Position numbers and translations under genes: made by a program | Shown here: piece after piece, positions 3,239 through 37,087 of the stretch | Layout of the letters: each line of letters starts with the position of its first letter | Position numbering within the stretch: position 1 is the stretch's first letter | The notes under the pieces: generated by a model | What the model saw: the letters and a program-made list of their open reading frames with translations, nothing else | The model's database searches: none | What the model was told of the DNA's origin: nothing | Assembly (NCBI GenBank): GCA_947628905.1 | Contig: CANRBQ010000002.1 | Location: forward strand, 625 to 64,624 | Direction of reading: 5' to 3' | Length of the DNA stretch: 64,000 nucleotides | Origin: an uncultured Bacilli bacterium | GTDB taxonomy: Bacteria > Bacillota_I > Bacilli_A > RF39 > UBA660

Positions 3239-4240
3239 CTACTTTCCTTTCTTAACCCTTTTTTCTTTCTTTGGCTTTATTATAACATCTTTTTTATCTT
3301 CCATCTCATTTATTTTTTTAATTACTAAATTTTGTACGACCACAAAACCATTTGTTGCTATCCAGTATAGAGCTATCGCTGTAGATAAATATAAAGACGC
3401 TACCGAAATCATAATAATCATAAACTTAAACATAAACTGCATTTGGCTTTCCATCTCTGGATTACCTGTTTGATTAGAACCCATTGAATTTCTAAATGAC
3501 AAATATGTCGTTAAAATAATTAAAACTATTATGGCAATATATCCCCATTGATGATATTCAAAAAGTCCCATCATAGGTGTTCTACCCAAAGTTAAACCTA
3601 AAAACTTATCCTCGAATATCGCAGGAGTTCTATTTATTGCTTGCAAAAATGCAAAGAACAAAGGAAGCTGAATAAAAGCCAGTAAACAACTACCAAAAGG
3701 ACTAATATTATACTTCTTATATACCATCATCATTTCTTGAGACTTTTGAAGCATTGCTTCATTATCCGTCCTATTTGCGTATTTTCTTTCAATTCTTGCT
3801 AATTCTGGTTGAGCTTTCTTTAAATTATTAGATTGCTTCATTGTTTTTATAGAAATAGGCATTAATATTAATCTTATAGCAAGTCCAACAATAATTACTG
3901 ATAAACCAAAATTATTAATTAAATATCCCAATTTTAAGATAATAAATGCTAAAGGCTTAACAAATAATCCTTCCCATAAACCTGAAGCTTTATTACTACT
4001 CATTTTAAAATCTGCACATTTAGGAAGTTTATCATAAGCTATTTTAGTTTGATCTTTATATTCTGAATATAACTTATCTAAATCTTTATCTACTGGCTTA
4101 CATAAAATATCTTTTTGTAATACTTGTCCAGTCGCGTCATTCTGTACTGGTTTATTATCTTTCATAATATAGTTACTATTCCCACATCCTGTAAGCATTA
4201 CAATCATTAACACTATAATTCCAATTTTAAATTTCTTCAT
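3239..4240 (-). CDS. yidC: YidC/OxaA membrane protein insertase (lipoprotein type)
   Basis: Lipobox LTGC, multi-TM Oxa1 core, basic C-terminal tail. rnpA-yidC-jag synteny. Confidence 0.93.
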   Translation of the reverse strand: MKKFKIGIIVLMIVMLTGCGNSNYIMKDNKPVQNDATGQVLQKDILCKPVDKDLDKLYSEYKDQTKIAYDKLPKCADFKMSSNKASGLWEGLFVKPLAFIILKLGYLINNFGLSVIIVGLAIRLILMPISIKTMKQSNNLKKAQPELARIERKYANRTDNEAMLQKSQEMMMVYKKYNISPFGSCLLAFIQLPLFFAFLQAINRTPAIFEDKFLGLTLGRTPMMGLFEYHQWGYIAIIVLIILTTYLSFRNSMGSNQTGNPEMESQMQFMFKFMIIMISVASLYLSTAIALYWIATNGFVVVQNLVIKKINEMEDKKDVIIKPKKEKRVKKGK

Positions 4241-4574
4241 TTTGTATCCTTTCCATAGTATCTACTAAATTCTTTTCCATCTCTTGAAATGTAATATCCA
4301 AAATACCCTTCTTTACCATTATAATATAATTACGCTTTTTTTGAAACATTTTTTTATTCTTATCTAAAATATGTCTAAGTCTTCTTTTAATTTTATTTCT
4401 TTCTACAGCATTCCCACATTTCTTACTAACAGCTAAACCAAACATAGGATAATCTTTAAACCCATCCTTATAATATATATTATAATATTTCGATTTTAAA
4501 TACTTTCCATTTTCAATTATATTATTAAAATCTGTATTTCTCTTTACCATCTCATATTTTTTCAAGTCAATCAC
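4227..4574 (-). CDS. rnpA: ribonuclease P protein component
   Basis: 115-aa basic protein with the KKxGNAVxRNKIKRRLR motif, directly downstream of rpmH. Confidence 0.92.
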   Translation of the reverse strand: MIDLKKYEMVKRNTDFNNIIENGKYLKSKYYNIYYKDGFKDYPMFGLAVSKKCGNAVERNKIKRRLRHILDKNKKMFQKKRNYIIMVKKGILDITFQEMEKNLVDTMERIQNEEI

Positions 4575-4740: not shown

Positions 4741-5332
4741 CCTCCTTAAAAAATTTCAAGTATTTTAATTATAATATTTTCTAAGCCAATAGTCAAGAAT
4801 TTTAGCATATTAATACCTAATAACACATATAAATATATTAAATTTTATTTATCTTAAATTAATTACTCTCCTAACTAAAAATTATAAATCATTTAAAGTT
4901 ATCAACATTTTAATGTGGATAATGTGGATAATTTTTTTCATTCACATCTTATTAACAATCAAATATTTCTAAAAACTTATCCAAGTATTTCTTATAAACA
5001 TAGTTTTTCAATTAAAAAGTGTATAAATATCTACTTATTAACATATAGATTAAAAGATCAAAACCTAAATAATAACTAATAAAAATAACCATTTTAAATC
5101 AATTACTAACACATTCCACAATATAATCAAAAATATCAACTGTTAATTGTTAATTAAAATCAAATTCATTTTGTTAGTAATGTAGATAACTCTCCAATCT
5201 TGCATAAACACTAAGAAAAACTATGTTTATAACTTGTGAATAAAATTTTTTTACATTTTTAGCTTTATTTTCGACCTTTTTTGCGATACAATTAATTTAC
5301 AAAACATTAGGACTATAAGCGGGGTGAGGTTT
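4741..5332. other. oriC (rpmH-dnaA intergenic region with DnaA boxes)
   Basis: Two abutting perfect boxes TGTGGATAA at 4914-4922 and 4923-4931. One-mismatch boxes at 4899-4907 (TTATCAACA), 5181-5189 (TGTAGATAA), 5235-5243 (TGTGAATAA) and 5332-5340 (TATGGATAA, over the dnaA start). The spacer is very AT-rich. Confidence 0.85.
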
Positions 5333-8039: not shown

Positions 8040-8492
8040 ATGCCTTATATTATCACAGAAAAAACCAATATCTTAATTCCTAAAAAAAGTATGACAGAAG
8101 TTATAGAAACAGAAAAAACATTTATTATTGAAGAAGAAACACTAGATGTCATTATGCATAATTGTTTTTTAAATGGTTCTAGTTTAGAAGGTAGACAACA
8201 TGGCAGTGCTTATCTTTTAGGTAGTTCTTATAAACCACCCATTATATTAAGTGAATTAGATAATTTAATATTTGTTCCAACGCATTCAATGCGTAATTTA
8301 AAATGTTGCTGGATTAACTTAGCTAATATCTTAAAATATTATCCTAGTAGTCCCGAAAAAGTAATAATTGAATTTAAAGATTTTCAAAAAATAGAATTAA
8401 ATATCTCTTATTATATTTTAGATAAACAAATATTGCGTGCAACTCGTTTAGAATCAACTTTAAGAGGTCGAAATCTAAAAAAACAACTTTAA
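8040..8492 (+). CDS. ComK-family protein
   Basis: GSSLEGRQHGSAYLLGSSYKPPIILSELDNLIFVPTHSMRNLKCCWIN aligns from memory with the B. subtilis ComK core GSSYAGRKAG...HKPPIMV...IFLFPTLS...CGWIS. GGAGG RBS upstream. Confidence 0.7.
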   Translation: MPYIITEKTNILIPKKSMTEVIETEKTFIIEEETLDVIMHNCFLNGSSLEGRQHGSAYLLGSSYKPPIILSELDNLIFVPTHSMRNLKCCWINLANILKYYPSSPEKVIIEFKDFQKIELNISYYILDKQILRATRLESTLRGRNLKKQL

Positions 8493-8580: not shown

Positions 8581-9669
8581 ATGGAAATTAGAAGTTTAAA
8601 GTTAATCAATTTTCGTAACTATGAATCTCTTGAACTTAAATTTAGTTCCGAGACCAATATTATCTATGGTCAAAATGGCATGGGGAAAACAAATTTAGTT
8701 GAAGCGATTTATATTTTAGGTTTAACCAAAACTTTTCGTTTAGGTAATGAAAGTGTTATTATAAAAAAAGGCAAGAATATTACCAAAATTGAAGGTTTAA
8801 TCATGGATAATATCTTAAATAGTTATAAGATAGTGGTAAGTGATACAGGTAAACATATAAAAATTGATAATAACAAAATTTCTAAAATAAGCGATTATAT
8901 AACAAAAGTTAATGTAATATTGTTTAATCCTGATGATTTAAAAATAATAAAAGACACCCCTATGACTAGAAGAAGACTTTTAAATATTGAAATATCTGGC
9001 ATTAATAAAGAATATTTATTATATTTAAATAACTATAATAAACTTTTAAAACAAAGAAATTCTTATTTAAAAGCTCTTAGTAAAAAAAATAATTTCAATA
9101 GTGATTTTTTAAATATTTTAACCGCCGAACTTATTAATACAGGTTTAAAAATAGTAGCTATTAGGCAAGATTTTATCACAAATATTAATAAATATATTGC
9201 TGATATATATTTTAAAATCACTAACAAAGGTCATCTATCGTTAAATTATAAAAGTGAATATAAGAATAAAACGAAAGACCAATTATTAAATATGTACGAG
9301 AAAAATATTTCCCGGGAAATAATTATGGGCAAAACTCTCTTTGGTCCTCAACATGATGATATAGAATTTATAGTAGATAAAGAAATTGTTAAAGAATTTT
9401 CTTCTGTTGGTGAACAAAAAAACAGTGTTATTGCCTTTAAGCTTGCTGAAATAAAAAATATTGAAGATAGCTTACATAAAAAACCTATATTAATATTAGA
9501 TGATTTATTTAGTGAATTAGATCAAGAAAAAATAAATAATATCTTAACATTACTTGATGATAAGTTACAAACATTTATAACAACTACGGAAATAGATTTT
9601 GTTGACCCTAAGTTACTCGCCAAATCAAAAATATTTCATGTTATAAATGGTAAAGTAAAGGAGGAATAA
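8581..9669 (+). CDS. recF: DNA replication/repair protein RecF
   Basis: Walker A GQNGMGKTN and SMC-like signature/Walker B LILDDLFSELD. Confidence 0.95.
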   Translation: MEIRSLKLINFRNYESLELKFSSETNIIYGQNGMGKTNLVEAIYILGLTKTFRLGNESVIIKKGKNITKIEGLIMDNILNSYKIVVSDTGKHIKIDNNKISKISDYITKVNVILFNPDDLKIIKDTPMTRRRLLNIEISGINKEYLLYLNNYNKLLKQRNSYLKALSKKNNFNSDFLNILTAELINTGLKIVAIRQDFITNINKYIADIYFKITNKGHLSLNYKSEYKNKTKDQLLNMYEKNISREIIMGKTLFGPQHDDIEFIVDKEIVKEFSSVGEQKNSVIAFKLAEIKNIEDSLHKKPILILDDLFSELDQEKINNILTLLDDKLQTFITTTEIDFVDPKLLAKSKIFHVINGKVKEE

Positions 9670-11586
<1,917 letters not shown>

Positions 11587-11597
11587 GAGGTGTTTAA

Positions 11598-14042
11598 ATG
11601 GATAGATTAGAAAAAAATAATATTGTAAAAGAAGTAAAAGATTCATTTCTTGAATATTCAATGAGTGTTATCGTGGCCCGTGCCCTACCCGATTTAAGAG
11701 ATGGTCTAAAACCTGTTCATCGTCGAATTTTATATTCTATGTATGAATCTGGCTACACCCCAGATAAGCCTCATAAAAAAAGTGCTCGTATCGTGGGAGA
11801 TGTTATGGGTAAATATCACCCTCATGGAGATTCAAGTATTTATGAAGCTATGGTTCGTATGGCTCAAGATTTTAGCTATCGCTATATGTTGGTAGATGGT
11901 CATGGAAACTTTGGTAATATTGAAGGTTATGGCGCTGCAGCCATGCGTTATACTGAATCAAGATTATCTAAAATATCCTTGGAATTATTGAGAGATATTA
12001 GAAAAGATACCGTGAATTTTACTCCAAACTTTGATGAATCAGAACAAGAACCTGAAATATTGCCATCAAGATTTCCTAATATCTTAGTAAATGGAACTAC
12101 TGGAATCGCTGTTGGTATGGCAACTAATATTCCCCCTCATAATCTTGGCGAAGTAATTGATGGTTGTATAGCCTATATTGATAATCCCGAAATAGATACT
12201 ACTGGTTTAATGCAATATATTAAAGGTCCAGACTTTCCAACCGGTGCTATTATCTTAGGTAACTCGGGTATCAAAAAAGCTTATGAAACAGGCCGTGGCA
12301 GTATCACAATTCGTTCTCGTGCCGAAATAGAAGAAAAAAATGGTCGAGAATATATAGTTATTACCGAAGTTCCTTATGGAGTTAATACTTTAGAATTAAA
12401 AAATAAAGTTGCCGAATTAGTTCATAATAAAGTATTAGATGGTATTACAGACTATCATGTAGATTTAAAAGAAGGCGTTAAAATAACTATTACATTAAGA
12501 AAAGATGCTAATGCTCAAGTTATTTTAAATAAACTTTATAAACATACTGCTTTTCAAACAACCTATGGTATTATCTTCTTGATGCTCGATAATGGAGTTC
12601 CTAAAACTTTAGGCCTAAAAGATATTATTTCTAAATACATTGATTATCAAAAAGAAGTAATAATTCGTCGTACTAGATTTGATTTAGATAAAGCTGAAAA
12701 ACGTGTTCATATCTTAGAGGGCTTAAAAATAGCTCTAGATCACATTGATGAAGTAATTAAACTAATTCGTGGATCAAAGTCTGATGAAGAAGCAAAACAA
12801 GGCTTAATGGAGAGATTTGGCCTATCAGACGTTCAAGCAGAAGCTATTCTTGAAATGCGTTTAAGAAGATTAACAGGCTTAGAAAGAGATAAAATTGAAG
12901 AAGAACTAAATGAATTATTAAAATTAATTGATGAATTAAGAAGTATTCTTGCATCAGAAGAAAAAGTCTTAAATATTATAAAAGAAGAATTATTAGAAAT
13001 AAAAGATAAATATAATGATAAACGTCGTACTGATATAGATATGACTGCAATAGAATATATCGAAGATGAATCACTTATCCCAGAAGAAGATATCCTTATT
13101 GCATTAACTAATAAAGGTTATATAAAACGTACCACTAGTGATACTTTTAAAGCTCAAAAACGTGGTGGAATGGGTATAAAAGGTATGACAACTAACGAAG
13201 AAGACTTTGTTGAACATATGATTAATTTAAGTAGCCACGATTACTTGTTGTTCTTTACTAATAAAGGTAAAGTTTATCGTCTAAAAGGTTATGAAATTCC
13301 AGAGTTTAATCGTCAGTCTAAAGGCTTACCAATTATTAATTTACTTCAAATAGATAAAGATGAAAGTATTAATACAATGTTAAGTGTAACCCCACAAGAA
13401 GATACGAAATTCCTGCTATTTGTTACCAAAAAAGGTTTAGTTAAGAAAACAGCAATAAGTGAATTTGAGAACATACGTACGTCAGGAAAGATATGTATAA
13501 ATCTTAAAGCATCAGACGAATTACTTGCTGTTAAAAAGACTAATGGTGATAATTTTGTCCTATTAGGTAGTGAAACTGGACGTATGGTTAAATTCCATGA
13601 AAAACATATCCGAGCAATGGGTAGAACCGCCAGTGGAGTTAAAGGTATAAATCTTGATGGTAGTAAATGTGTCTGTGCTGAAGTAGTAACAGAAGAAGAT
13701 AAAATATTGTTGGTAACTGAAAAAGGATATGGAAAAAAGACGTTAGTAAAAGAGTTTAGAGAAACAAGTCGTGGCAGCAAAGGTGTAAAAGCTCTAAATA
13801 TTACCGAAAAAAATGGTAATATATCAGCTGTCAAAGTTGTTGATGAAAGCAAAGAATTAATTATTATGACTAATACAGGAACAACCATGAGAATGTCATT
13901 AGAGCAAATAAATACTTTAAGTCGCGTAACTCAAGGTGTAAGATTAATTAATCTTAAAGATGATCAATACGTAACAACAATTAGTTTAGTAGATAAACAA
14001 CCACCAGAAGAAGAACAAATTGAAGAAAGTAATGCTGAATAA
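11598..14042 (+). CDS. gyrA: DNA gyrase subunit A
   Basis: Active-site [25 protein letters not shown]-terminal beta-pinwheel repeats. Confidence 0.98.
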
Positions 14043-14075
14043 GCATTCTTTTTTTTATGCTTAAATTTTTTTTAT
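14041..14075 (+). terminator. probable gyrA terminator
   Basis: AAGCAT/ATGCTT stem around a T-rich loop, followed by AAATTTTTTTT. Confidence 0.5.
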
Positions 14076-14090
14076 AAGGTTAAAAAATAA

Positions 14091-14099
14091 TGTGGATAA
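14091..14099. promoter_or_regulatory. perfect DnaA box TGTGGATAA
   Basis: Exact reverse complement of TTATCCACA. Confidence 0.7.
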
Positions 14100-14127
14100 C
14101 TATTAAATATATAAGAAAATCACAAAA

Positions 14128-14143
14128 GGTTTCACGTGAAATA
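14128..14143. other. degenerate parS-like site GGTTTCACGTGAAATA
   Basis: 14/16 match to TGTTTCACGTGAAACA. Confidence 0.45.
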
Positions 14144-14170
14144 TATCCAACCTTCAAAAAATCATCATAA

Positions 14171-14186
14171 TGTTCCACGTGGAACA
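14171..14186. other. parS site TGTTCCACGTGGAACA
   Basis: Perfect palindrome, extendable to AATGTTCCACGTGGAACATT. Matches the ParB/Spo0J consensus TGTTNCACGTGAAACA apart from the symmetric G. Confidence 0.7.
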
Positions 14187-14230
14187 TTCCAATTTAAAAT
14201 ATAAAGTTCTAAAATCCATAACATTTAAAA

Positions 14231-14239
14231 TTATCCACA
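14231..14239. promoter_or_regulatory. perfect DnaA box TTATCCACA
   Basis: Exact consensus, 1 nt from the next parS. Confidence 0.7.
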
Positions 14240-14240
14240 A

Positions 14241-14256
14241 TGTTTCACGTGAAACA
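14241..14256. other. parS site TGTTTCACGTGAAACA
   Basis: Exact match to the Firmicute parS consensus; perfect palindrome. Confidence 0.8.
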
Positions 14257-14396
14257 TTGCTACAAAAAAATAAATAATTAATATTTTATTAAAACAAAAA
14301 ATATATTTTTGATTATTATTAAAAATTAAAAAGCAATAATATTAAAATAATTTATTAAACAATATAATAAAATCAAAAAATAAAACTTACTAACAA

Positions 14397-14412
14397 TGTT
14401 TCACGTGAAACA
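14397..14412. other. parS site TGTTTCACGTGAAACA
   Basis: Identical copy. Confidence 0.8.
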
Positions 14413-14498
14413 TTGTAACAAAAAACATCTAAATTAAGAAAATAAAAACATTTTTATATAGAATCTTTACATAAAATAGTAAAAATTGCAAAAAAATA

Positions 14499-14514
14499 TG
14501 TTTCACGTGAAACA
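14499..14514. other. parS site TGTTTCACGTGAAACA
   Basis: Identical copy, ending 6 nt upstream of the -35 of the ffs promoter. Confidence 0.8.
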
Positions 14515-14520
14515 TTACCC

Positions 14521-14549
14521 TTGCAAAATAACAATTTTTGTGGTACATT
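14521..14549 (+). promoter_or_regulatory. sigma-A-type promoter for SRP RNA
   Basis: TTGCAA, 17-nt spacer, TACATT with an upstream TGg (extended -10). The predicted start is about 14556. Confidence 0.6.
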
Positions 14550-14555
14550 AATAAC

Positions 14556-14632
14556 GTGCAACAAATATATTGTAACCTGGTCAGAACTGGAAAGTGGCAG
14601 CCATATCAATCTCTATTTGTGTGCACACTTTT
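14556..14632 (+). ncRNA. ffs: small (4.5S-type) signal recognition particle RNA
   Basis: CCUGGUCAGAACUGGAAAGUGGCAGCCA matches the universal helix-8 motif (GGUCAG...GGAA tetraloop...GCAGCCA). It is closed by GUGCAACAAAUA pairing with UAUUUGUGUGCAC, then a T-run. It overlaps the 5' end of tracked ORF 14594. Confidence 0.8.
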
Positions 14633-14647
14633 TTTATGGAGGAATTT

Positions 14648-15073
14648 ATGCAAGAAAAATATTTTGAGATTCTGCTAAAACTTAGTAAAAAAGCATTCAA
14701 AAAACAAGAAGTGCCAGTAAGTGCTCTTATAGTGAAGGATAATAAGATCCTTGCCACTAGCTATAACACTAGAAAATCCAAAAAGAATGTGTGCAATCAT
14801 GCGGAAATGTTAGTAATTAAAAAAGCAAGTAGAAAATTACACGATTGGCGACTTAATAATTGTGATCTATATGTAACTCTTAAGCCCTGCTCTATGTGTG
14901 AATCTGCTATTAAACAAGCCCGTATTTCCCACGTTTACTATTTACTAGATAAATTAGATTTTAAAAAAGAATATAATAAAACTGAATTTTCAAAAGCAAA
15001 CATACGTACGCTAGAAGAAAAATATTCTCAAGAATTAAAGGATTTTTTTGCGATTATTCGGGACAAATCCTAA
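14648..15073 (+). CDS. tadA: tRNA-specific adenosine deaminase
   Basis: HAEM...PCSMCESA zinc-deaminase motifs. Start moved to ATG 14648 (MQEKYF), preceded by GGAGG. The tracked N-terminal 18 aa lie over the SRP RNA and its terminator. Confidence 0.9.
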   Translation: MQEKYFEILLKLSKKAFKKQEVPVSALIVKDNKILATSYNTRKSKKNVCNHAEMLVIKKASRKLHDWRLNNCDLYVTLKPCSMCESAIKQARISHVYYLLDKLDFKKEYNKTEFSKANIRTLEEKYSQELKDFFAIIRDKS

Positions 15074-15126
15074 GATATATGATATAATTAATCTATAAAA
15101 AACTTAAGCTGAAAGGAATGACTAAA

Positions 15127-16746
15127 ATGGATTATAAAGTACTATACCGTAAATATCGCCCTACTGACTTTTCTAGCATAATTGGTCAAGATTATATGAT
15201 ATCCATTTTAAGAAATTCCATTAAAAATAATAAAATATCTCATGCTTATATTTTCTCTGGTCCCCGAGGTACAGGAAAAACCAGCACCGCTAAAGTATTT
15301 GCTAAGGCCATAAATTGTTTAAATCCTACTGAAAATGGGCCCTGTCTTAACTGTGAAAGTTGTAAAAGCTTTCAAGAAAATGCCGATATTATTGAAATAG
15401 ATGCTGCTTCTAATAATGGGGTTGATGAAATTCGTGAAATTATTAATAACATTAAATTAGCCCCTGCTTATTCTAAATATAAGGTATATATAATTGATGA
15501 AGTCCATATGCTAAGCACCAGTGCTTTTAATGCCCTATTATTAACATTAGAAGAACCCCCTAAACATGTTGTTTTTATTCTTGCTACTACTAATATCGAG
15601 GCTGTTCCTATAACTATACTTTCTCGCTGCCAAAGATTTGATTTTCATAAGATTTCTTTAAAAGATATTATTAAACGCTTAGAATATGTCGTTCAATCAG
15701 AAAATATAAATATAACTAAAGATGCTTTAGAAGAAATCGCGTATATTAGTGATGGAGGTATGCGTGATGCTCTAAGTATTCTTGATCAATTATCTAGTAA
15801 TAATAAAGAAGTTACCATAAACGAAGTCATCGCCCACTTTGGCTCTGTTTCCAATAAACAAATAAATGATTTATATAATAATATTTTAAATAATAAGGTT
15901 AATGATTTTGTTTCCATGATGGATAATTTTAAAAACCTTGCTATTGATTATAAGCTTTTAATTAAAAAAATACTTGAAAAAATTGAAACCGAAGCTATTA
16001 AAAGTAAAAAAGATTCTAATTATCAAGGCCTGGCGTATGAAACTCTAAAAGATATGGCTTTCGCTCTAGCAAGCATATCCAATTATGTAAATATTAATAT
16101 TAATCCCTATCTTTTAATTCAAATAACTCTCTTAAATTATTTCCCGGGAAATAATCCTACCCCCAAAGAAACAACTTCTAAATTAGAAACACCCCAACCA
16201 GTTGCTAATAAAATAGAGCTACCTCAAGAAAATATCCCTAGCCCCCAACCTAAAGTTACCTCACCTCCAATTGATAAAAAGCTCGCTGAATTAATAGAAA
16301 TACGTATTAATAATTGCTTCTGTGGTGCTACTAAAGAAAATCTTCAGCAAGTGCGTAGCTATTGGCCCGACTTTATCGCCAGTTTTTCCGATAAAAAAGT
16401 TTTAAATCTTATTATTGATAGTAATATAGCCGCGGCTAGTGATAAAATAATTATAATTACTAATCCTATAGATGGCACAGTTAATTTAATTAATAAAGAA
16501 TTAGCTAAAATTGGCTTAGAATTTAATGAAAAGTTTAATACATCATATAAATTTATTGCTCTAACTGATCGAACATGGCAACAAGAAAGACAAAAATATA
16601 TTAACAATCTAAAAAATAAAATCGCGTATACTTATATTGAAGAAACACCAGAAGAAAAAAGTAAAGAAGAACAAGCTTCATCTATAGATAATATAGAAAA
16701 AGTAGCTTTAGATATATTTGATAAAGATAAAATAGAAATAGAATAA
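15127..16746 (+). CDS. dnaX: DNA polymerase III subunits gamma/tau
   Basis: MDYKVLYRKYRP N-terminus, Walker A GPRGTGKTS, zinc module CLNCESC, SRC motif. ATG 15127 has better RBS spacing than 15118. Confidence 0.95.
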   Translation: MDYKVLYRKYRPTDFSSIIGQDYMISILRNSIKNNKISHAYIFSGPRGTGKTSTAKVFAKAINCLNPTENGPCLNCESCKSFQENADIIEIDAASNNGVDEIREIINNIKLAPAYSKYKVYIIDEVHMLSTSAFNALLLTLEEPPKHVVFILATTNIEAVPITILSRCQRFDFHKISLKDIIKRLEYVVQSENINITKDALEEIAYISDGGMRDALSILDQLSSNNKEVTINEVIAHFGSVSNKQINDLYNNILNNKVNDFVSMMDNFKNLAIDYKLLIKKILEKIETEAIKSKKDSNYQGLAYETLKDMAFALASISNYVNININPYLLIQITLLNYFPGNNPTPKETTSKLETPQPVANKIELPQENIPSPQPKVTSPPIDKKLAELIEIRINNCFCGATKENLQQVRSYWPDFIASFSDKKVLNLIIDSNIAAASDKIIIITNPIDGTVNLINKELAKIGLEFNEKFNTSYKFIALTDRTWQQERQKYINNLKNKIAYTYIEETPEEKSKEEQASSIDNIEKVALDIFDKDKIEIE

Positions 16747-19552: not shown

Positions 19553-20243
19553 TTTATATGACTATGGTTTAAAGATCTATCAAGATACAAATAAATTTAA
19601 ATTCTCTCTTGATTCTCTTTTATTAACTGAATTTGTTGAAGTATCTAAAAATGATCATAATCTTTTAGATTTATGCAGTGGTAATGCCCCATTACCTTTA
19701 ATACTTGCATCTAAAACTAATCTCCATATAACAGGCATCGAACTTCAACCAGATATATATAATTTAGCCCTTAAAAGTATCAAATATAACCATCTTGAAT
19801 CCCAAATAAAAATGTTAAATATAAATGCTAAAGATACTAACAATTATTTCCCGGGAAATAATTTTGACATTATAACCTGTAATCCTCCCTTTTTTAAAAC
19901 TACTCCCACCTCATTAGTTAATGATACAAAAGAAAAAGCTCTCGCTCGTCATGAACTTACTATTACTCTTGAAGAATTAATAATTATTACATCTAAATTA
20001 TTAAAAGATAATGGTAAATTTTATTTAGTTCATCGTCCCGAAAGACTTGAAGAAATTTTAGTATTAGCCCATAAAAATAATTTAAGAGTAAAAAAAATTA
20101 ATTTTATTTATACAAATATTGAAAAAAATGCTATAATGGTTTTGTTCAAATTTGTCAAAAATGGTAATATTTCTACTAAAGTATATAACACTATAATTAA
20201 TAATGATATTAAAACATATCAAAATATTTTTAAAAATAAATAG
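19533..20243 (+). CDS. SAM-dependent N6-adenine methyltransferase (YabB / TrmN6-like)
   Basis: DLCSGNAPLPL SAM motif and catalytic CNPPFF. Confidence 0.8.
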   Translation: MSLVLNDLYDYGLKIYQDTNKFKFSLDSLLLTEFVEVSKNDHNLLDLCSGNAPLPLILASKTNLHITGIELQPDIYNLALKSIKYNHLESQIKMLNINAKDTNNYFPGNNFDIITCNPPFFKTTPTSLVNDTKEKALARHELTITLEELIIITSKLLKDNGKFYLVHRPERLEEILVLAHKNNLRVKKINFIYTNIEKNAIMVLFKFVKNGNISTKVYNTIINNDIKTYQNIFKNK

Positions 20244-24960: not shown

Positions 24961-26274
24961 ATGAGGATAGAGAAGTTAAGTAAAGGAAGAAAAAAGAAAG
25001 TAATATTAGCTATAACAATATTAGTATTGTTAATAGGAATAGTATATATAACAAATAGTAAAGCTAAATATCATGTAACAAGTAATATACAAATAGTTAA
25101 AGGTAAAGTAAGTTATAGTCCATATGATTTTCAAATTATGGCAATGTATAAAGAAGAAGATGGAGAAGATATAAAAATAGAAGAAATGCCTGATTATAGA
25201 TATGCAATAGATGAAGAAAGAAGCTATTGCATGAGAGGAGATTCAAAAATAACAGGAGTATTAAAAACCATAAATGGATATCATACAATATCTAAATTGC
25301 ATACTAATGATAAATGTTATCTATATTTTGAAAATAATTCTTGTGGAAGTGCCTGTCAAAAAATACTTAATAATAAAACGATTCTTACTAGGACAGATTT
25401 TAATACTATTTTTGAAGGTTCTACAACTAATAAAATATATCAAAGCACAGATGATGATGGAAATACATATTATTTCGCCGGCTCCCCAACAGATAATTTT
25501 CTAAAATTTGCTGGATTTTACTGGAGAATTATCCGAATAAATGGCAATGGTTCCATTCGTATAATATATGATGGTACATCTATTCATAATAATAATAATA
25601 GTGCTGCAGATAGAGAGATTTTTACAAGTGCATTTAATGCCAGTGAAAATGATAATATGTACGTTGGATATATGTACAAAGCAAATGAAGTTCACGGACT
25701 TTCAGTTTCTAGCAAAATAAAAACAGATTTGGATTCATGGTATAACAGTAAATTATCATCATATTTAGATATGTTTGAAATTAATGCTGGCTTTTGTAAT
25801 GATAGAAAAAATTCAACAAATCCTTCAACACCATGGGGAAGCGAAACAGATGATGGAGGTACAGGAACAACAGATACATATTATGGAGAGTACCTTCGTA
25901 ATAATAAACAACAGCCTACTTTTAAATGTGCAGACGAAAGAGACCTGTTTACAACAAAGGACTCACAAATTGGTAATAATGCATTAACCTACCCTATAGG
26001 CTTAATAACCATGGATGAAGTAGTATATGCAGGCGGCTTTGCTAATAATACTAATAGTTTTTATTTACGCACCGGTAAAGATTTTTGGACAATGACTCCT
26101 AAATCATTTAATAATACTAATAAAATTGCCTATGTTAGTATAGTTTCTGCAGATGGAGGAATAAGAGGATATGTAGAAACAAAATATCCACGAGGAGTAC
26201 GCCCTGTTTTAAATTTAAAATCTAATATCAATTTAACTGGAACAGGCACAGTAAGTGATCCATATTCAGCATAA
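24961..26274 (+). CDS. secreted/surface protein, paralog 1 of a three-member family
   Basis: N-terminal signal-anchor (KKKVILAITILVLLIGIVYI). Shared family motifs: SYCMRG, KCYLYF, YWRIIRINGNGSIRIIY, YVGYMY, GFCNDR, PTFKC, GNNALTYPIGLITMDEVVYAGGF, FWTMTP, GVRPVLNLK. Confidence 0.8.
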   Translation: MRIEKLSKGRKKKVILAITILVLLIGIVYITNSKAKYHVTSNIQIVKGKVSYSPYDFQIMAMYKEEDGEDIKIEEMPDYRYAIDEERSYCMRGDSKITGVLKTINGYHTISKLHTNDKCYLYFENNSCGSACQKILNNKTILTRTDFNTIFEGSTTNKIYQSTDDDGNTYYFAGSPTDNFLKFAGFYWRIIRINGNGSIRIIYDGTSIHNNNNSAADREIFTSAFNASENDNMYVGYMYKANEVHGLSVSSKIKTDLDSWYNSKLSSYLDMFEINAGFCNDRKNSTNPSTPWGSETDDGGTGTTDTYYGEYLRNNKQQPTFKCADERDLFTTKDSQIGNNALTYPIGLITMDEVVYAGGFANNTNSFYLRTGKDFWTMTPKSFNNTNKIAYVSIVSADGGIRGYVETKYPRGVRPVLNLKSNINLTGTGTVSDPYSA

Positions 26275-32245: not shown

Positions 32246-33592
32246 ATGTTTGATACTATTTGTGCTATTTCAACCTCTAGAGGAGTTGGAGCTATATCTA
32301 TCATTCGTGTAAGTGGAAATGAAGCCATAAGTAAAGTAGCTCCCCTTTTTGATGGCAAAAATCTTTTAGAAGTACCAAGTAACACCATCAACTATGGACA
32401 TATAGTTAAAGATAATGAAATAATTGATGAAGTATTAGTAAGTGTAATGCGTGCCCCTAAAACTTATACAAAAGAAGATATAATTGAAATAAATACTCAT
32501 GGAGGTATTGCCCCTACTAAAAAAGTCTTAGAAACTCTTTTAGAAACAGGTATTCGTCTAGCCGAGCCAGGAGAATTTACCAAAAGGGCTTTTTTAAATG
32601 GTCGTCTAGATCTAGCCGAAGCTGAAGCTGTTGAAAATTTAATATCTTCAGGAACAGACTTAGAAAGAAAACTTGCTTTAAATCAAATGAGTGGTAAAGT
32701 ATCTCGTAAAATAAAAAAAGTTAGAGATATTATTGTTGAATTAATGGCTAATATTGAAGTAAACATAGATTTTCCCGAATATGAAGATGCTTTAATTATT
32801 ACTTTAGATAATTTACCACCCAAATTAAATGAAATAAAAAAAGAATTAGAAACTCTTTTAGAAGAAGCTAAAATAGGTAAATTAATAGAACAAGGAATTA
32901 AAGTAGCAATTGTTGGTCGTCCTAATGTTGGCAAAAGTAGTTTATTAAATGCTCTATTAGATGAAAATAAAGCTATAGTAACAGATATCGCAGGAACTAC
33001 TAGAGATATAGTTGAAGGTGAAATAGAACTAAAAGGTATTCGTCTAAAATTTATTGATACCGCGGGTATTCGTAAAACTAATGATATAGTTGAAAAAATT
33101 GGTGTTGATAAATCTTTAGAAATAATTAAAGAAGCTGATTTAGTAATTCATGTTTTAGATAATAATGAAGAATTAACTGAAGAAGATCAAGAAATAATGA
33201 CCAAAATAAAAAATAAAACTCATATTACTTTTATAAATAAAAATGATTTACCAACCAAAATAAAATTAAATTCTAAAGATTATATTATTGGTAATACTAA
33301 AAAAGATAATGGATTAGAAACTTTAAAAAATAAAATAATTGAATTATTTGAATTAGAAGATATAAAAACTAATAATTTAGAAGTTATATCAAGCACTCGC
33401 ATAATTAATTTAATAAAAGAAGCTTTATCATCAATTAATAATGCTTTATCTAATGTAGATGCTAAAATTCCTGTTGATATGATTGCTATTGATATTAAAA
33501 AAGCCTGGGATTTACTAGGAGAAATTACTGGTGAAACTTATCAAGATGAACTATTAGATACTTTATTTAGTAAATTCTGTTTAGGTAAATAA
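32246..33592 (+). CDS. mnmE: tRNA modification GTPase MnmE
   Basis: G1 GRPNVGKSS, G3 DTAG, C-terminal FCLGK. Confidence 0.97.
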   Translation: MFDTICAISTSRGVGAISIIRVSGNEAISKVAPLFDGKNLLEVPSNTINYGHIVKDNEIIDEVLVSVMRAPKTYTKEDIIEINTHGGIAPTKKVLETLLETGIRLAEPGEFTKRAFLNGRLDLAEAEAVENLISSGTDLERKLALNQMSGKVSRKIKKVRDIIVELMANIEVNIDFPEYEDALIITLDNLPPKLNEIKKELETLLEEAKIGKLIEQGIKVAIVGRPNVGKSSLLNALLDENKAIVTDIAGTTRDIVEGEIELKGIRLKFIDTAGIRKTNDIVEKIGVDKSLEIIKEADLVIHVLDNNEELTEEDQEIMTKIKNKTHITFINKNDLPTKIKLNSKDYIIGNTKKDNGLETLKNKIIELFELEDIKTNNLEVISSTRIINLIKEALSSINNALSNVDAKIPVDMIAIDIKKAWDLLGEITGETYQDELLDTLFSKFCLGK

Positions 33593-33624
33593 CTTAAACT
33601 ATAAAAAAGAAAGTAAGTGATAAC

Positions 33625-35481
33625 ATGTATGATTTAATTGTTGTAGGAGGTGGCCATGCTGGTTGTGAAGCGGCCCATATTGGGGCTGTTCTTGGCCTTA
33701 AAACAGCCTTAGTAACGGCTAATATTAAAAATATAGCTGATATGCCATGTAATCCTGCTATTGGAGGAACTGCTAAAGGTATAATTGTAAGAGAAATAGA
33801 TGCTTTAGGAGGACTAATGGGTATTATCGCTGATAAATCTCATTTTCAAATTAAAATGCTTAACAATGGTAAAGGTCCTGCTGTAAGAAGTCTTCGGGCT
33901 CAAGCCGATAAAATAACCTATCCTAAAAATATGTTAAAAGCTTTAGATGAAACTGAAAACTTAACTATTATTGAAGGCATGGTAGAAGATTTAATAATTG
34001 AAAATAATATGGTAAAAGGAATAGTTTTAGCTAATAAACAAGAAATTAGTGCTAAATCTGTTATTTTAACAACGGGTACTTATTTAAAAGGTAATATTTT
34101 AATTGGTAAAGAAAATAATCCTGGAGGACCTCATGGTGAAGCAAGAAGTAACCATTTGAGTGATAATCTAAGAAAATATGGTTTAACTATTCAAAGATTA
34201 AAAACTGGAACTCCTCCTCGTATTAAAAAAGATTCTATTGATTTTACTAAAATGCATCCTGAAAATGGTGATGATAAATATTATACTTTTTCTTTTGATA
34301 CTGAACCTTTATATAAAATAAATGACCAACAAAAATGTTATTTAATTTATACTAATGAAAATACCCATAATATTATTAAAGCTAATTTAGATAAATCCGC
34401 TATGTATGGAGGATATGTAACCGGGATTGGTCCTCGTTATTGTCCTTCTATTGAAGATAAAATTGTTAGATTTGCCGATAAACCTCGTCATCAATTATTT
34501 TTAGAACCAGAAAGCCTATATTATGATGAATGGTATCTACAAGGCTTTTCTACTTCTATGCCAAGAGATATCCAAGAAAAAATGGTTCATAGTTTACCAG
34601 GCTTAGAAAATGCCCAAATAACTAAATATGCATACGCGATTGAATACGATGCAATAGATCCTTTACAAATGAAACCATCACTTGAAAATAAAATAATCGA
34701 AAATCTTTTTACGGCTGGTCAAATAAATGGTACCAGTGGTTATGAAGAAGCAGCAGCCCAAGGATTAATCGCGGGTATAAATGCTCATCATAAATTAAAA
34801 GGTATAGAACCATTAATATTAAAACGCAATGAAGCTTATATTGGGGTATTAATTGATGATTTAGTAACTAAAGGAACCAAAGAACCCTATCGTATGTTAA
34901 CATCTCGTGCCGAATTTCGTTTATTACTTCGCCATGATAATGCTGACTTAAGACTTCGAGAAATAGGCTATAAAAATGGTACAATAGATAAAGAAAGATA
35001 TGAGAAATTAACAGAAAAAATAGCTACTATTAATAATATTAAAAATATTCTTCGTAATACTAATTTAAGTTTAAATGAAGAAACAAAAGAAAAATTTACT
35101 CAAGCAAATCTTGAAATACCAACTTCCAGTGTTTCTCTATACTTACTTTTAAAAAGACCAGAAATAACAATTGATTTTATTAAAAAACTTCTTCCCTTAG
35201 ATTATCCTAATGATATCTTAGAAGAAGTAGAAATTGAAATTAAATATGAAGGATATATTGCTAAAGCTTATAAAGAAGTTGAAAAAATGCTAAAACTTGA
35301 AGAAAAAATTATTCCCGAGGATATTGATTATCACGACATTTTAAATCTGGCCAGTGAAGCCCGTCAAAAACTTGAAAAAATAAGACCTAAATCAATTGGC
35401 CAAGCTGCTCGTATCAGTGGTGTTAATCCCAGTGATTTATCTATTTTATCAGTTTATTTAAAAAAGAAATATAATAAATAA
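33625..35481 (+). CDS. mnmG: tRNA uridine 5-carboxymethylaminomethyl modification enzyme MnmG
   Basis: FAD motif VVGGGHAGCEAA, full-length GidA homology. Confidence 0.98.
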   Translation: MYDLIVVGGGHAGCEAAHIGAVLGLKTALVTANIKNIADMPCNPAIGGTAKGIIVREIDALGGLMGIIADKSHFQIKMLNNGKGPAVRSLRAQADKITYPKNMLKALDETENLTIIEGMVEDLIIENNMVKGIVLANKQEISAKSVILTTGTYLKGNILIGKENNPGGPHGEARSNHLSDNLRKYGLTIQRLKTGTPPRIKKDSIDFTKMHPENGDDKYYTFSFDTEPLYKINDQQKCYLIYTNENTHNIIKANLDKSAMYGGYVTGIGPRYCPSIEDKIVRFADKPRHQLFLEPESLYYDEWYLQGFSTSMPRDIQEKMVHSLPGLENAQITKYAYAIEYDAIDPLQMKPSLENKIIENLFTAGQINGTSGYEEAAAQGLIAGINAHHKLKGIEPLILKRNEAYIGVLIDDLVTKGTKEPYRMLTSRAEFRLLLRHDNADLRLREIGYKNGTIDKERYEKLTEKIATINNIKNILRNTNLSLNEETKEKFTQANLEIPTSSVSLYLLLKRPEITIDFIKKLLPLDYPNDILEEVEIEIKYEGYIAKAYKEVEKMLKLEEKIIPEDIDYHDILNLASEARQKLEKIRPKSIGQAARISGVNPSDLSILSVYLKKKYNK

Positions 35482-35504
35482 ATCCAGCATCTAAACTGGA
35501 TTTT
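35482..35504 (+). terminator. mnmG terminator
   Basis: ATCCAG / CTGGAT stem followed by TTTT. The hairpin is nearly the same as at 36900-36922. Confidence 0.6.
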
Positions 35505-35592
35505 AAATTTGACCATTAGTAAGTTTTATTGTATAATAATTTTAGGGAAACTTAATAGTTGAGTGCTTGCCTCTTGAAAGGAGGCAGATGAT

Positions 35593-35676
35593 ATGTATAA
35601 GAAAGATTTTTTAATCTTATCTCTTATTATGATTATCTTTTTACTCATAGCCTTACTTTTTACTTTAGTAATATAG
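35593..35676 (+). CDS. candidate 27-aa hydrophobic peptide (type I toxin-like), not in ORF track
   Basis: Promoter TTGACC(35509-14), 17 nt, TGTATAAT(35530-37). The SD AAAGGAGG is partly buried in the hairpin TGCCTC(35568-73)/GAGGCA(35581-86). Hand translation: MYKKDFLILSLIMIIFLLIALLFTLVI. Confidence 0.5.
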   Translation: MYKKDFLILSLIMIIFLLIALLFTLVI

Positions 35677-35688
35677 TAATCTATATAA

Positions 35689-35804
35689 GAAAAAAGCACT
35701 CAATTTACATTCAGTAGATTAAGTGCTAACCAAAAAATACGGTAAGTGCTCAACATTGAAGAATTAAGCCTTCCCTTTTTTATTTTATGAAGTTTCCCTC
35801 ATCT
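35689..35804 (-). ncRNA. candidate convergent antisense sRNA (module C)
   Basis: Minus-strand promoter TTGCAA(35838-33), 16 nt, TATAAT(35816-11) with TGG. Terminator stem (complement of 35695-35703 / 35719-35727) followed by a U-run (A-run 35690-35695). Confidence 0.5.
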
Positions 35805-35888
35805 CTATACATTATACCATATTTTTAACTTTTTGCAAATATCTTTCCCTAAAACTATTAATGTGATACAATTAAACCGAGGTGTATT

Positions 35889-36593
35889 ATGTCAATTAAT
35901 GAATTTATTAAAGAATTATCTAAATTAAATATTAATTTAACAGAAGAACAATTAAATAATTTAGAAATATATAAAAATCTTTTACAAGAATATAATCAAA
36001 AATTTAATCTAACAGCTTTAACTAAAGATGAAGATATATATTTAAAACATTTTTATGATTCTTTAACTTTAAATAAAAACCTAGATTTAACCAAAGAATT
36101 AAATATTTTAGATATTGGAACAGGCGCCGGCTTTCCTGGTTTAGTTTTAAAAATAATATTTCCTAATCTAAATATAACTTTATTAGATTCTAATCATAAA
36201 AAAATAGAATTTTTAAATACTGTAATATCTAAATTAAACTTAAAAAAAATAACTTGTCTTAATTCTCGTGCCGAAAATTTAGACAGTAAATATATTGAAT
36301 ATTTTGATGTTATAACATCTCGTGCTGTCGCACATCTTCGTATATTAATAGAACTATCTCTTCCCTATCTTAAAATAAATGGTTTATTTATCGCTATGAA
36401 AGGTAATTTAAATAATGAACTAAAAGAATCAGAATCTACTTTAAGTAAATTAAATGGAAACATTATAGATATAAAAGAATTTAAATTGCCCATAGAACTT
36501 AGTAATCGTAGTTTAATAACTATTAAAAAAATTAATAAAACCCCTAAAGAATACCCCAGAACTTATGATAAAATAATAAAAAAATCTTTATAA
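35889..36593 (+). CDS. rsmG: 16S rRNA m7G527 methyltransferase RsmG
   Basis: DIGTGAGFPG SAM motif, with mnmG-rsmG synteny. Confidence 0.95.
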   Translation: MSINEFIKELSKLNINLTEEQLNNLEIYKNLLQEYNQKFNLTALTKDEDIYLKHFYDSLTLNKNLDLTKELNILDIGTGAGFPGLVLKIIFPNLNITLLDSNHKKIEFLNTVISKLNLKKITCLNSRAENLDSKYIEYFDVITSRAVAHLRILIELSLPYLKINGLFIAMKGNLNNELKESESTLSKLNGNIIDIKEFKLPIELSNRSLITIKKINKTPKEYPRTYDKIIKKSL

Positions 36594-36661: not shown

Positions 36662-36880
36662 ATGTTAGAAAATATTTTATTAATAATATCAATTTTAATT
36701 ATCGCGGTTGTATTACTTCAAAGTAATAAAGCCAGTGATGGTAGTCAAATAATTTCAGGAGGAAATGAAGTATTATTCCAAAATATGAAAGAAAGAGGCT
36801 TTGAATTATTTATTAGTCGTTTAACTCTTATATTAGGTTTATTATTCTTTATTATTTCTCTAGTTATTTTCTTAAAATAA
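36662..36880 (+). CDS. secG: preprotein translocase subunit SecG
   Basis: 72-aa two-TM protein with a central GG...RG motif typical of SecG. Confidence 0.75.
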   Translation: MLENILLIISILIIAVVLLQSNKASDGSQIISGGNEVLFQNMKERGFELFISRLTLILGLLFFIISLVIFLK

Positions 36881-36899
36881 TTAAAATATTAATAATTAG

Positions 36900-36922
36900 A
36901 TCCAGCATAACTGGATTTTTTT
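36900..36922 (+). terminator. secG terminator
   Basis: ATCCAG / CTGGAT stem followed by TTTTTT. Confidence 0.7.
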
Positions 36923-37087
36923 AATTGAAATAAATATTTTAAAAAATACTTGAAAAATTATAAATAATATTGTACACTAGAAATATATCATAGAAAAATA
37001 TGACATATATTGATATGTTTTGTCGATTGTAATGAAAAAGTAGAGCAAATAAGTTATAATGGACAAAGAATAAGAGGAGATATAAGC

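Follow-up and report, generated by a model that had tools for sequence, protein, structure and literature searches.

What role could be played by a short, gene-free spacer close to the origin of replication, in which recognition sites for two chromosome-handling proteins are interleaved? This question is raised by a 64-kb stretch of contig CANRBQ010000002.1 from an uncultured Bacilli bacterium (hereafter the window; all window counts and searches refer to its full length), an origin region of ~26% GC with the standard bacterial code. The spacer between gyrA and ffs, the gene for the small signal recognition particle (4.5S) RNA, is 420 bp long, and between 14091 and 14514 it holds five palindromes of the parS type, the site on which ParB loads, together with two perfect DnaA boxes (Table 1). 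We consider it likely that 14091–14514 is a chromosomal centromere, that is, a platform for ParB loading.

The window was searched with the parS consensus TGTTNCACGTGNAACA, allowing two mismatches. Exactly five matches were found in 64 kb, all of them between 14128 and 14514, where shuffled sequences lead one to expect 0.05; none of 100 shuffles gave five or more. Four sites are perfect and one matches at 14 of 16 positions; in relatives the site orthologous to this degenerate copy reads GGTTTCACGTGAAACA or TGTTTCACGTGAAACA. All parS sites and both DnaA boxes lie where the first-pass annotation of this DNA had put them, and its identification of the palindromes as the Spo0J/ParB parS of Firmicutes agrees with the exact consensus matches and with their retention at this position across 80 relatives (see below). 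It had also placed the three copies of TGTTTCACGTGAAACA within one extended unit. This holds for their coordinates but not for the flank of the third copy, which is TATG and not AATG; the extended unit in question is the 19-mer ATGTTTCACGTGAAACATT. Spacing of the sites is irregular, and with no tandem family present a tandem repeat in the window was rejected. Terminator hairpins were rejected too, the palindrome flagged as terminator-like on the minus strand being parS itself. The array is not an assembly artefact, since independent unitigs from rabbit-gut metagenome runs match 13849–14388 and 14268–14562 with zero differences.

The array is origin-proximal, because the oriC DnaA boxes, the GC-skew minimum and dnaA together fix oriC at ~4.6–5.3 kb. 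It lies ~9 kb clockwise of oriC, and ~9.2 kb from the DnaA boxes of oriC at 4914–4931. A second origin at the array was considered and rejected: the skew switch and the box clusters are at dnaA and the dnaA–dnaN spacer, with none at 14 kb.

Conservation was assessed in relatives collected by a GyrA scan with one genome per species, which gave 80 loci (designated by L numbers) with GyrA 74–98% identical. All are gut Bacilli that have not been cultured, with labels such as Bacilli bacterium, Ca. Caccenecus, Ca. Coprovivens, Ca. Onthousia and 'Mycoplasma sp. CAG:776/877'. Clustering at 85% GyrA identity gave 23 groups, the window's clade having 20 members, and synteny from rnpA to ricT is kept in all 80 loci. 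In every locus whose contig extends far enough past gyrA, parS-type sites are confined to the gap between gyrA and dnaX, the sole exception being one match with a single mismatch inside dnaX of L049. Counted by distance from the gyrA stop codon over 81 sequences (~1.3 Mb), perfect parS number 211 in the first kilobase, 16 in the second and one in the third, the remaining 17 one-kilobase bins within ±10 kb being empty. All 60 complete gaps contain at least one parS with at most one mismatch (1–11 per gap, median 4). Information content in the flanks is near zero beyond the 16-mer and one or two bases on each side, and alignments of orthologous sites show footprints of the palindrome and DnaA box only, the surrounding spacer being unalignable. 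We read the parS sites at the gyrA–ffs position as being under strong purifying selection across the 80 relatives. The proposal, made at first annotation, that this is the main ParB loading site fits with there being no parS elsewhere in the 64 kb and no perfect parS outside the gap in ~1.3 Mb.

Arrangement within the gap varies between species. Some relatives carry tandem arrays with periods of 37–309 bp, and regular head-to-tail units with one binding site each are found in L030, L076, L080, L046, L048 and L078 but not in the window. What the array contains changes as repeat units are duplicated or decay. With position and site identity fixed while copy number and spacer are fluid, the locus therefore bears the signature of a cis-acting platform for protein binding. 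A likening of the array to a plasmid centromere, also part of the first-pass annotation, holds for the relatives with regular tandem arrays and fails for the window, where the intervals are 43, 70, 156 and 102 bp. Because the array is a repeat, many contigs of metagenome-assembled genomes (MAGs) end within it, and it seems to be a systematic break point in short-read assemblies of this lineage. The contigs of L006, L014, L023, L024, L027, L043, L048, L055, L062, L072, L076 and L080 stop a few hundred bases past gyrA.

Perfect DnaA boxes number seven in the window against 0.63 expected, and two of them are in the array. Over all loci their density per kilobase is 1.75 in the rnpA–dnaA spacer (oriC), 1.36 in the dnaA–dnaN spacer, 0.60 in the gyrA–dnaX gap and 0.055 everywhere else, the gap being ~11-fold denser than the rest of the loci. 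Forty-five perfect boxes lie no more than 60 nt from a parS, and 37 of these take one of three offsets: plus-strand boxes that start 10 nt (once 11) before the parS start (offset 1; 10 boxes), plus-strand boxes that start 16–18 nt after it and so abut parS (offset 2; 15 boxes), and minus-strand boxes 36–37 nt before it (offset 3; 11 boxes). Composites with offset 1 and/or 3 are present in 19 of the 20 members of the window's clade when one box mismatch is allowed; composites of other types occur in four to five further genus-level groups, offset 1 being found also in L036 and offset 2 in three other groups, and part of the composite count being due to shared ancestry and tandem duplication. 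The mixing of DnaA boxes with parS that was remarked on at first annotation is therefore not a matter of chance, given the density, the three fixed offsets and the recurrence in the clade.

Alignments of individual composites are in keeping with this. Fourteen clade members keep the box at 14091 along with the extension TGTGGATAACT and the register to parS, two of them with TGTTGATAA; the flanks are unconserved (alignment A1). The parS-3 composite, with TTATCCACA or a one-mismatch box (TTATCAACA or CTATCCACA), is kept in 11 clade relatives amid random flanks (alignment A2). Because box footprints are kept amid diverged flanks, and because separate clades show distinct arrangements, DnaA binding beside parS appears to be selected in the clades that have composites. 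In the window's clade DnaA very probably binds inside the proposed centromere, since consensus boxes stand at a fixed register to two parS. A related signal is less easily read. At the offset of the parS-3 box, 37 of 85 clade parS sites have a 9-mer with at most three mismatches to the box, where control offsets give 1.6%. TTACTAACA is the most frequent of these, and the commonest 10-mer there is TTACTAACAA (13 clade sites). It is uncertain whether TTACTAACA is a weak DnaA box, a reading that we do not press because three of the matching positions (ACA) may instead be part of a longer parS palindrome. A G(G/A)(G/A)AAA block, GGAAAA in most, lies within 14112–14122, after the first DnaA box and before parS-1, and is kept in 14 aligned clade members (alignment A1, columns 44–50).

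On its downstream side the array abuts the predicted promoter of ffs. The last parS had been annotated as ending 6 nt before the −35 element, as indeed it does (parS ends at 14514, the −35 starts at 14521), and the abutment is kept in most relatives. In 58 loci the array is followed by ffs. Between the last parS and the projected start of ffs there are 33–35 nt in 13 of 18 clade sequences with an identified ffs, the window among them, and 29–45 nt in ~20 more distant relatives; CTTGC(A/C)A, a spacing of 16–18 nt and TGnG(G/A)TAAATT are kept upstream of ffs in relatives. A simple consensus promoter scan of the window did not list the predicted ffs promoter, which has 8 of 12 matches. The promoter should be a strong one. 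As the last parS abuts the predicted −35, ParB bound there and transcription of ffs probably affect one another; in P. aeruginosa, ParB represses promoters beside parS3/4 (PMC5521831). Transcription from the ffs promoter may continue into tadA, because the likely start of tadA directly follows the ffs 3′ stem and T-run. The longest open reading frame (ORF) of tadA, from GTG 14594, overlaps the 3′ part of ffs.

A second kind of site, which the first-pass annotation had not mentioned, flanks the array. The Noc-binding site (NBS) ATTTCCCGGGAAAT occurs in three perfect copies in the window, with no other match of up to two mismatches in 64 kb; all three are at most 5.5 kb from the parS array, and the other 44 kb has none. 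The copy inside recF is DNA-identical in 16 clade relatives and uses the GC-rich codons TCC and CGG in a 26% GC genome, while distant relatives have other peptides and AT-rich codons at that position. The copy in a trmN-like methyltransferase gene, again in GC-rich codons, is preserved as DNA sequence by most clade members, as well as by L026 and L036. The exact position of the dnaX copy is common to L001 only, other clade members having one or two elsewhere in dnaX. In more distant groups NBS lie within the gap itself, often alternating with parS in tandem units with periods of 56–97 bp, and over the 81 sequences 92 of 175 perfect NBS fall in the first kilobase after gyrA. The 14-mers of the frame shared by both sites comprise 300 pure parS cores, 185 pure NBS cores and nine hybrids. 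This division into two classes with only nine hybrids points to two separate readers. Because NBS flank the array here and are mixed with parS in the arrays of sister clades, the origin-proximal domain is probably shared by a second clamp of the ParB family.

Which proteins might read these sites? NCBIfam and Pfam scans of nearly all window ORFs of at least 100 aa found none of the ParA or ParB family. A relaxed scan (E up to 1) of ten window ORFs without a hit gave no ParB, a search for the ParB motif GERRxRA in all six frames of the window no match, and tblastn with the ParB-family proteins of L109 and L110 no significant match in the window. The first-pass annotation had stated that the window lacks parA and parB and has secG after rsmG; the profile scans and motif search leave the first statement standing, and secG is confirmed. 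Following rsmG homologues led to a ParB-family gene in relatives. Those with the ancestral order (dnaA / rpmH rnpA yidC jag mnmE mnmG rsmG) have one ParB-family gene of 319–365 aa right after rsmG, neither parA nor another parB being present within 10 kb of it. 'Mycoplasma sp. CAG:776'-type contigs have a 406-aa ParB_N and HTH_ParB gene 4 kb after rsmG, and in two members of the window's clade (L109 and L110, from the contigs of L005 and L019) the gene lies 0.9–1.9 kb past rsmG and shares a contig with the array. That the window's clade has a ParB-family gene is certain. In the window and the related MAG CANRIB01 (GyrA 98% identical), secG and other genes occupy the slot after rsmG. A metagenome scan with the lineage protein gave 13 loci, each with a single ParB-family gene.

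This lineage protein resembles Noc. It scores 293.5 bits with the Noc model TIGR04285 (cut-off 315) versus 184 with the general ParB domain model, and its best solved relatives are Noc chains (PDB 7NG0, 7NFU and 7OL9). The recognition-helix region reads SQSAI(A/S)NKLRLL(S/N/T)L ... ISERHARSL. Q173, K179, S/N/T184 and R201 (Caulobacter numbering) are present in all 97 parsable homologues of the 120 found, and the ISERHAR motif that holds R201 in 118 of 120. Positions 173/179/184/201 are RTAG in ParB and QKKR in Noc; Q173 reads adenine 1 and R201 cytosine 6 of NBS, and Q173, R201 and one lysine (179 or 184) suffice for NBS preference; in the Caulobacter ParB scaffold R173 is invariant among binders specific to parS, and dual binders usually carry T or S at position 201 (Jalal et al. 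2020, PMC7383237). On account of Q173, K179 and R201, we predict that the lineage protein binds NBS and not parS. Its N terminus is ~20 residues shorter than in the solved Noc chains and is without the membrane-helix region, PNRFQPR starting at residue 17 in 93 of 120 homologues; in Noc the N-terminal extension holds a membrane-targeting helix (PMC4331003, PMC8429893). A long acidic insert precedes its C-terminal domain.

These results suggest how the locus could work. It would be a compact, untranslated platform on which a CTP-dependent ParB clamp could nucleate at any of five sites, four of them perfect and one degenerate. ParB dimers would load on each 16-bp palindrome, close into clamps and slide onto flanking DNA, where, from established ParB biology, they would recruit SMC–ScpAB; having several sites in 390 bp would speed loading and provide redundancy. 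The putative platform is kept between the gyrA stop and the ffs promoter throughout this lineage of uncultured gut Bacilli. More speculatively, DnaA might act as a roadblock or gate for ParB loading or sliding; alternatively the locus might titrate DnaA, or DnaA might license centromere function as in Caulobacter.

Several observations weigh against a ParB-loading centromere of this design. A parS-specific ParB (R173/G201) was not found in the window, the 80 gyrA loci or ~20 rsmG loci, and the only ParB-family member found in the lineage is the one predicted to bind NBS, not parS. Because a parS-binding ParB has not been located, the centromere reading rests on site identity and conservation, and it is only from the strict conservation of parS that we infer a parS-specific ParB in the lineage. 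Furthermore, parS sites or clusters may be present elsewhere in the genome, the counts covering the 64-kb window and the relatives' loci. With regard to DnaA, the window array has no one-mismatch boxes, and the composites are clade-specific; because they are absent from about two-thirds of genus-level groups, the boxes are not essential to the array.

The only alternative with real support is that one protein does everything: the Noc-type protein encoded after rsmG would bind both parS and NBS, and the array would be its platform in a lineage without a classical Spo0J. This would explain a lone gene after rsmG with neither parA nor a second parB nearby in the ancestral order, the finding of no second family member in the ~1.9 Mb of lineage DNA inspected, the missing long Noc membrane-helix region in a protein whose PNRFQPR begins so early, and S/N/T at position 184 where Noc has K. 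Yet positions 1 and 6 of the sites covary strictly, whereas a promiscuous reader would tolerate hybrids; the lineage has Q173/R201, against the invariant R173 of parS binders and the T or S201 of most dual binders (PMC7383237); and the DNA inspected is a small part of each genome. We regard this explanation as improbable, though worth keeping in mind. By comparison with known titration sites, the array could instead be a locus for DnaA titration or regulation, of the datA or B. subtilis box-cluster type, in which parS is secondary. The perfect-consensus boxes, their enrichment in the gap and retention in the window's clade, and an origin-proximal locus that would be duplicated early would all suit such a role, but the window array has two boxes and no near matches, most genus-level groups lack array boxes while all have parS, and, where a datA-like locus typically has at least 4–5 boxes in a few hundred bp, the relatives have 0–5. 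A titration locus is in our view very improbable.

The conserved distance from the last site to the ffs −35 would also be expected of ordinary operators, that is, of transcription-factor sites for ffs–tadA–dnaX or gyrBA that only look like parS, and CACGTG, the core of the site, is frequent as an operator half. The match to the ParB site extends over all 16 positions, however, the outer ones being conserved too; there are up to 11 copies over 0.5–2.5 kb, more than a promoter needs; copies remote from promoters are conserved equally; and no helix-turn-helix regulator gene adjoins the array. We therefore give operators little credence. Least credible of all would be neutral or selfish repeats with no binding function (hairpins like repetitive extragenic palindromes, terminators or slippage products). 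Tandem expansion, differences between species and the one palindrome flagged as terminator-like on the minus strand are what such repeats would produce, but the 16-mer is invariant while its surroundings change, occurs nowhere else in the loci, and has the sequence of a known protein-binding site.

An elaboration of the centromere reading, which we put forward tentatively and hold to be possible but doubtful, is a three-component centromere in which parS, NBS and DnaA boxes share the same repeat units beside gyrA. A ParB clamp, an NBS-specific clamp without the Noc membrane helix, and DnaA would in that case be assembled next to each other. Recruitment of the Noc paralogue from nucleoid occlusion to the centromere would then have taken place in a lineage near whose origin no ParA was seen.

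B. subtilis has about ten parS, single and scattered, mostly within genes, in the origin-proximal fifth of the chromosome. The 16-bp site of its Spo0J–parS system is identical to that found here and likewise origin-proximal, and by analogy CTP-dependent clamp loading, spreading and SMC recruitment would be expected here too. Unlike in B. subtilis, the four to five sites are gathered in a single untranslated stretch of 390 bp, the rest of the 64 kb having none, soj/spo0J is not in the rsmG slot and no parA is seen. An origin-proximal distribution of parS is the general rule, and S. pneumoniae has an orphan ParB with four parS and no ParA (PMC7022226). Clusters of parS near oriC are also well known (PMC7022226, PMC4368675); P. 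aeruginosa parS1–4 and the clusters of Corynebacterium, Myxococcus and Streptomyces resemble the array in having several parS near oriC, and one parS is enough for function in clustered chromosomal parS (PMC4368675). Those clusters span kilobases to tens of kilobases and are mostly near parAB, whereas the present one takes up 0.4 kb, is anchored to gyrA–ffs and has DnaA boxes mixed in, plus NBS in sister clades.

The iterated centromeres of plasmids offer another comparison. The sopC centromere of F consists of tandem repeats, each with a SopB site. Similarly, the relatives have head-to-tail repeats of 37–140 bp with one ParB-type palindrome each, in 6–11 copies, and as in plasmid centromeres copy number evolves fast. 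Unlike these, the array is chromosomal, has the chromosomal parS consensus and irregular spacing in the window, and does not lie beside a parA/parB operon, its neighbours being gyrA and ffs–tadA–dnaX.

The Noc–NBS system of Bacillus and Staphylococcus uses the identical palindrome ATTTCCCGGGAAAT, and its protein is matched by the Noc-like protein with Q173, K179 and R201. The lineage protein differs from Noc in scoring below the 315-bit cut-off, in lacking the N-terminal extension and in its long acidic C-terminal insert. In B. subtilis NBS are scattered around the chromosome (PMC4331003), whereas here they are concentrated near the array, and sister clades alternate NBS with parS in tandem units. 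For DnaA at a centromere there is one precedent, Caulobacter, where DnaA binds DnaA boxes in the parS region, separately from oriC (Mera 2014, as reported in PMC6399470). Here too DnaA boxes lie inside the putative centromere region. Unlike in Caulobacter, which belongs to another phylum, perfect boxes lie 1 nt from parS in a register kept across species, and this cross-species 1-nt register implies that the two proteins would be in direct steric contact. In the open-access literature we found no case that combines a gene-free array locked to gyrA–ffs throughout a lineage and expanding in tandem as plasmid centromeres do, consensus DnaA boxes 0–2 nt from parS and alternation with NBS, nor one in which this combination includes a helix-less Noc-type protein as the only near-origin gene of the ParB family.

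If the centromere reading is correct, the locus has several consequences. The gene-free array, expanding and contracting in tandem at one address, would give a natural chromosomal centromere a plasmid-like behaviour. The comparative series (1–11 sites; periods of 37–309 bp) could reveal how site number and spacing affect ParB loading. The conserved 1-nt juxtaposition of box and parS suggests direct interplay of the initiator DnaA and the ParB clamp loader, which is testable with existing purified proteins because both motifs are the B. subtilis consensus. The alternation of parS and NBS in sister clades provides a natural test of whether clamps of the ParB and Noc types help or obstruct one another when they share a DNA track. 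For genome assembly, the arrays break metagenome contigs just after gyrA.

Table 1. Sites, genes and arrays in the window and in related loci (L numbers)
Feature	Position	Strand	Remarks
jag, yidC, rnpA		−	
oriC	~4.6–5.3 kb		upstream of dnaA; DnaA boxes 4914–4931, box cluster, GC-skew minimum at 4–6 kb
dnaA	5324		followed by dnaN, comK, recF, gyrB
NBS in recF	9307–9320		codons AAT ATT TCC CGG GAA ATA
gyrA	11598–14042		followed by the array
DnaA box	14091–14099	−	perfect; TTATCCACA on − strand; 37 nt start-to-start upstream of first parS
parS-1	14128–14143		GGTTTCACGTGAAATA; 14/16, degenerate; right half-site ATTTCAC
parS-2	14171–14186		TGTTCCACGTGGAACA; perfect palindrome
DnaA box	14231–14239	+	perfect; 1 nt from parS-3; composite TTATCCACAATGTTTCACGTGAAACA
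parS-3	14241–14256		TGTTTCACGTGAAACA; palindrome extended to CAATG...CATTG
9-mer TTACTAACA	14387–14395	+	register to parS-4 as DnaA box to parS-3; 3 mismatches to box
parS-4	14397–14412		TGTTTCACGTGAAACA; within 24-bp palindrome ACAATG...CATTGT
parS-5	14499–14514		TGTTTCACGTGAAACA; ends 6 nt before ffs −35
Predicted ffs promoter	14521–14549	+	−35 TTGCAA 14521–14526; 17-nt spacer; extended −10 TGgTACATT 14541–14549
ffs, small SRP (4.5S) RNA	14550–14635	+	Rfam RF00169, 50.5 bits (gathering 40); transcribed away from array
tadA	14649		likely start, ATG behind GGAGG; directly after ffs, then dnaX, ybaB, recR, holB, ricT
NBS in dnaX	16139–16152		
NBS in trmN-like gene	19846–19859		encodes YFPGNN
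mnmE-mnmG-rsmG	32246–36593	+	rsmG 35889–36593
secG	36690–36910		after rsmG
L030 tandem parS array			53 bp × 10.8
L076 tandem parS array			37 bp × 7.2
L080 tandem parS array			39 bp × 7.1
L031 tandem array			140 bp × 4.2
L046 parS/NBS units	12488–12840		56 bp × 7.4
L048 parS/NBS units	12507–12860		62 bp × 6.1
L078 parS/NBS units	3819–4310		64 bp × 7.8
L034 parS/NBS units	9540–10090		97 bp × 5.8
L044 array	13729–14500		309-bp unit with parS, NBS and DnaA box
L064 array	12503–13130		nine NBS, no parS before contig end
L085 ParB-family gene	14727–15947		
L102 ParB-family gene	10001–10960		
L105 ParB-family gene	10001–11020		
L107 ParB-family gene	10001–11065		
L109 ParB-family gene	11622–13154		
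L110 ParB-family gene	12557–13774		

Some features of the window outside the array were also recorded. Its own proteins are on record only on contigs shorter than 2 kb, and a homologue search with the gene at its left edge gave no homologues. Two ORFs, 24961–26274 (437 aa) and 37010–38560 (516 aa), belong to no confident family, each with a weak C-terminal match to DUF6273; the 516-aa ORF fills the slot after rsmG–secG. The mnmE–mnmG–rsmG genes lie 27–31 kb clockwise of oriC in the window and beside jag, on the other side, in L102–L108. Finally, a comK gene (PF06338, E = 4e-32; 8040–8492) lies between dnaN and recF, the slot of a small S4-like gene in B. subtilis, and is kept there in all relatives examined.

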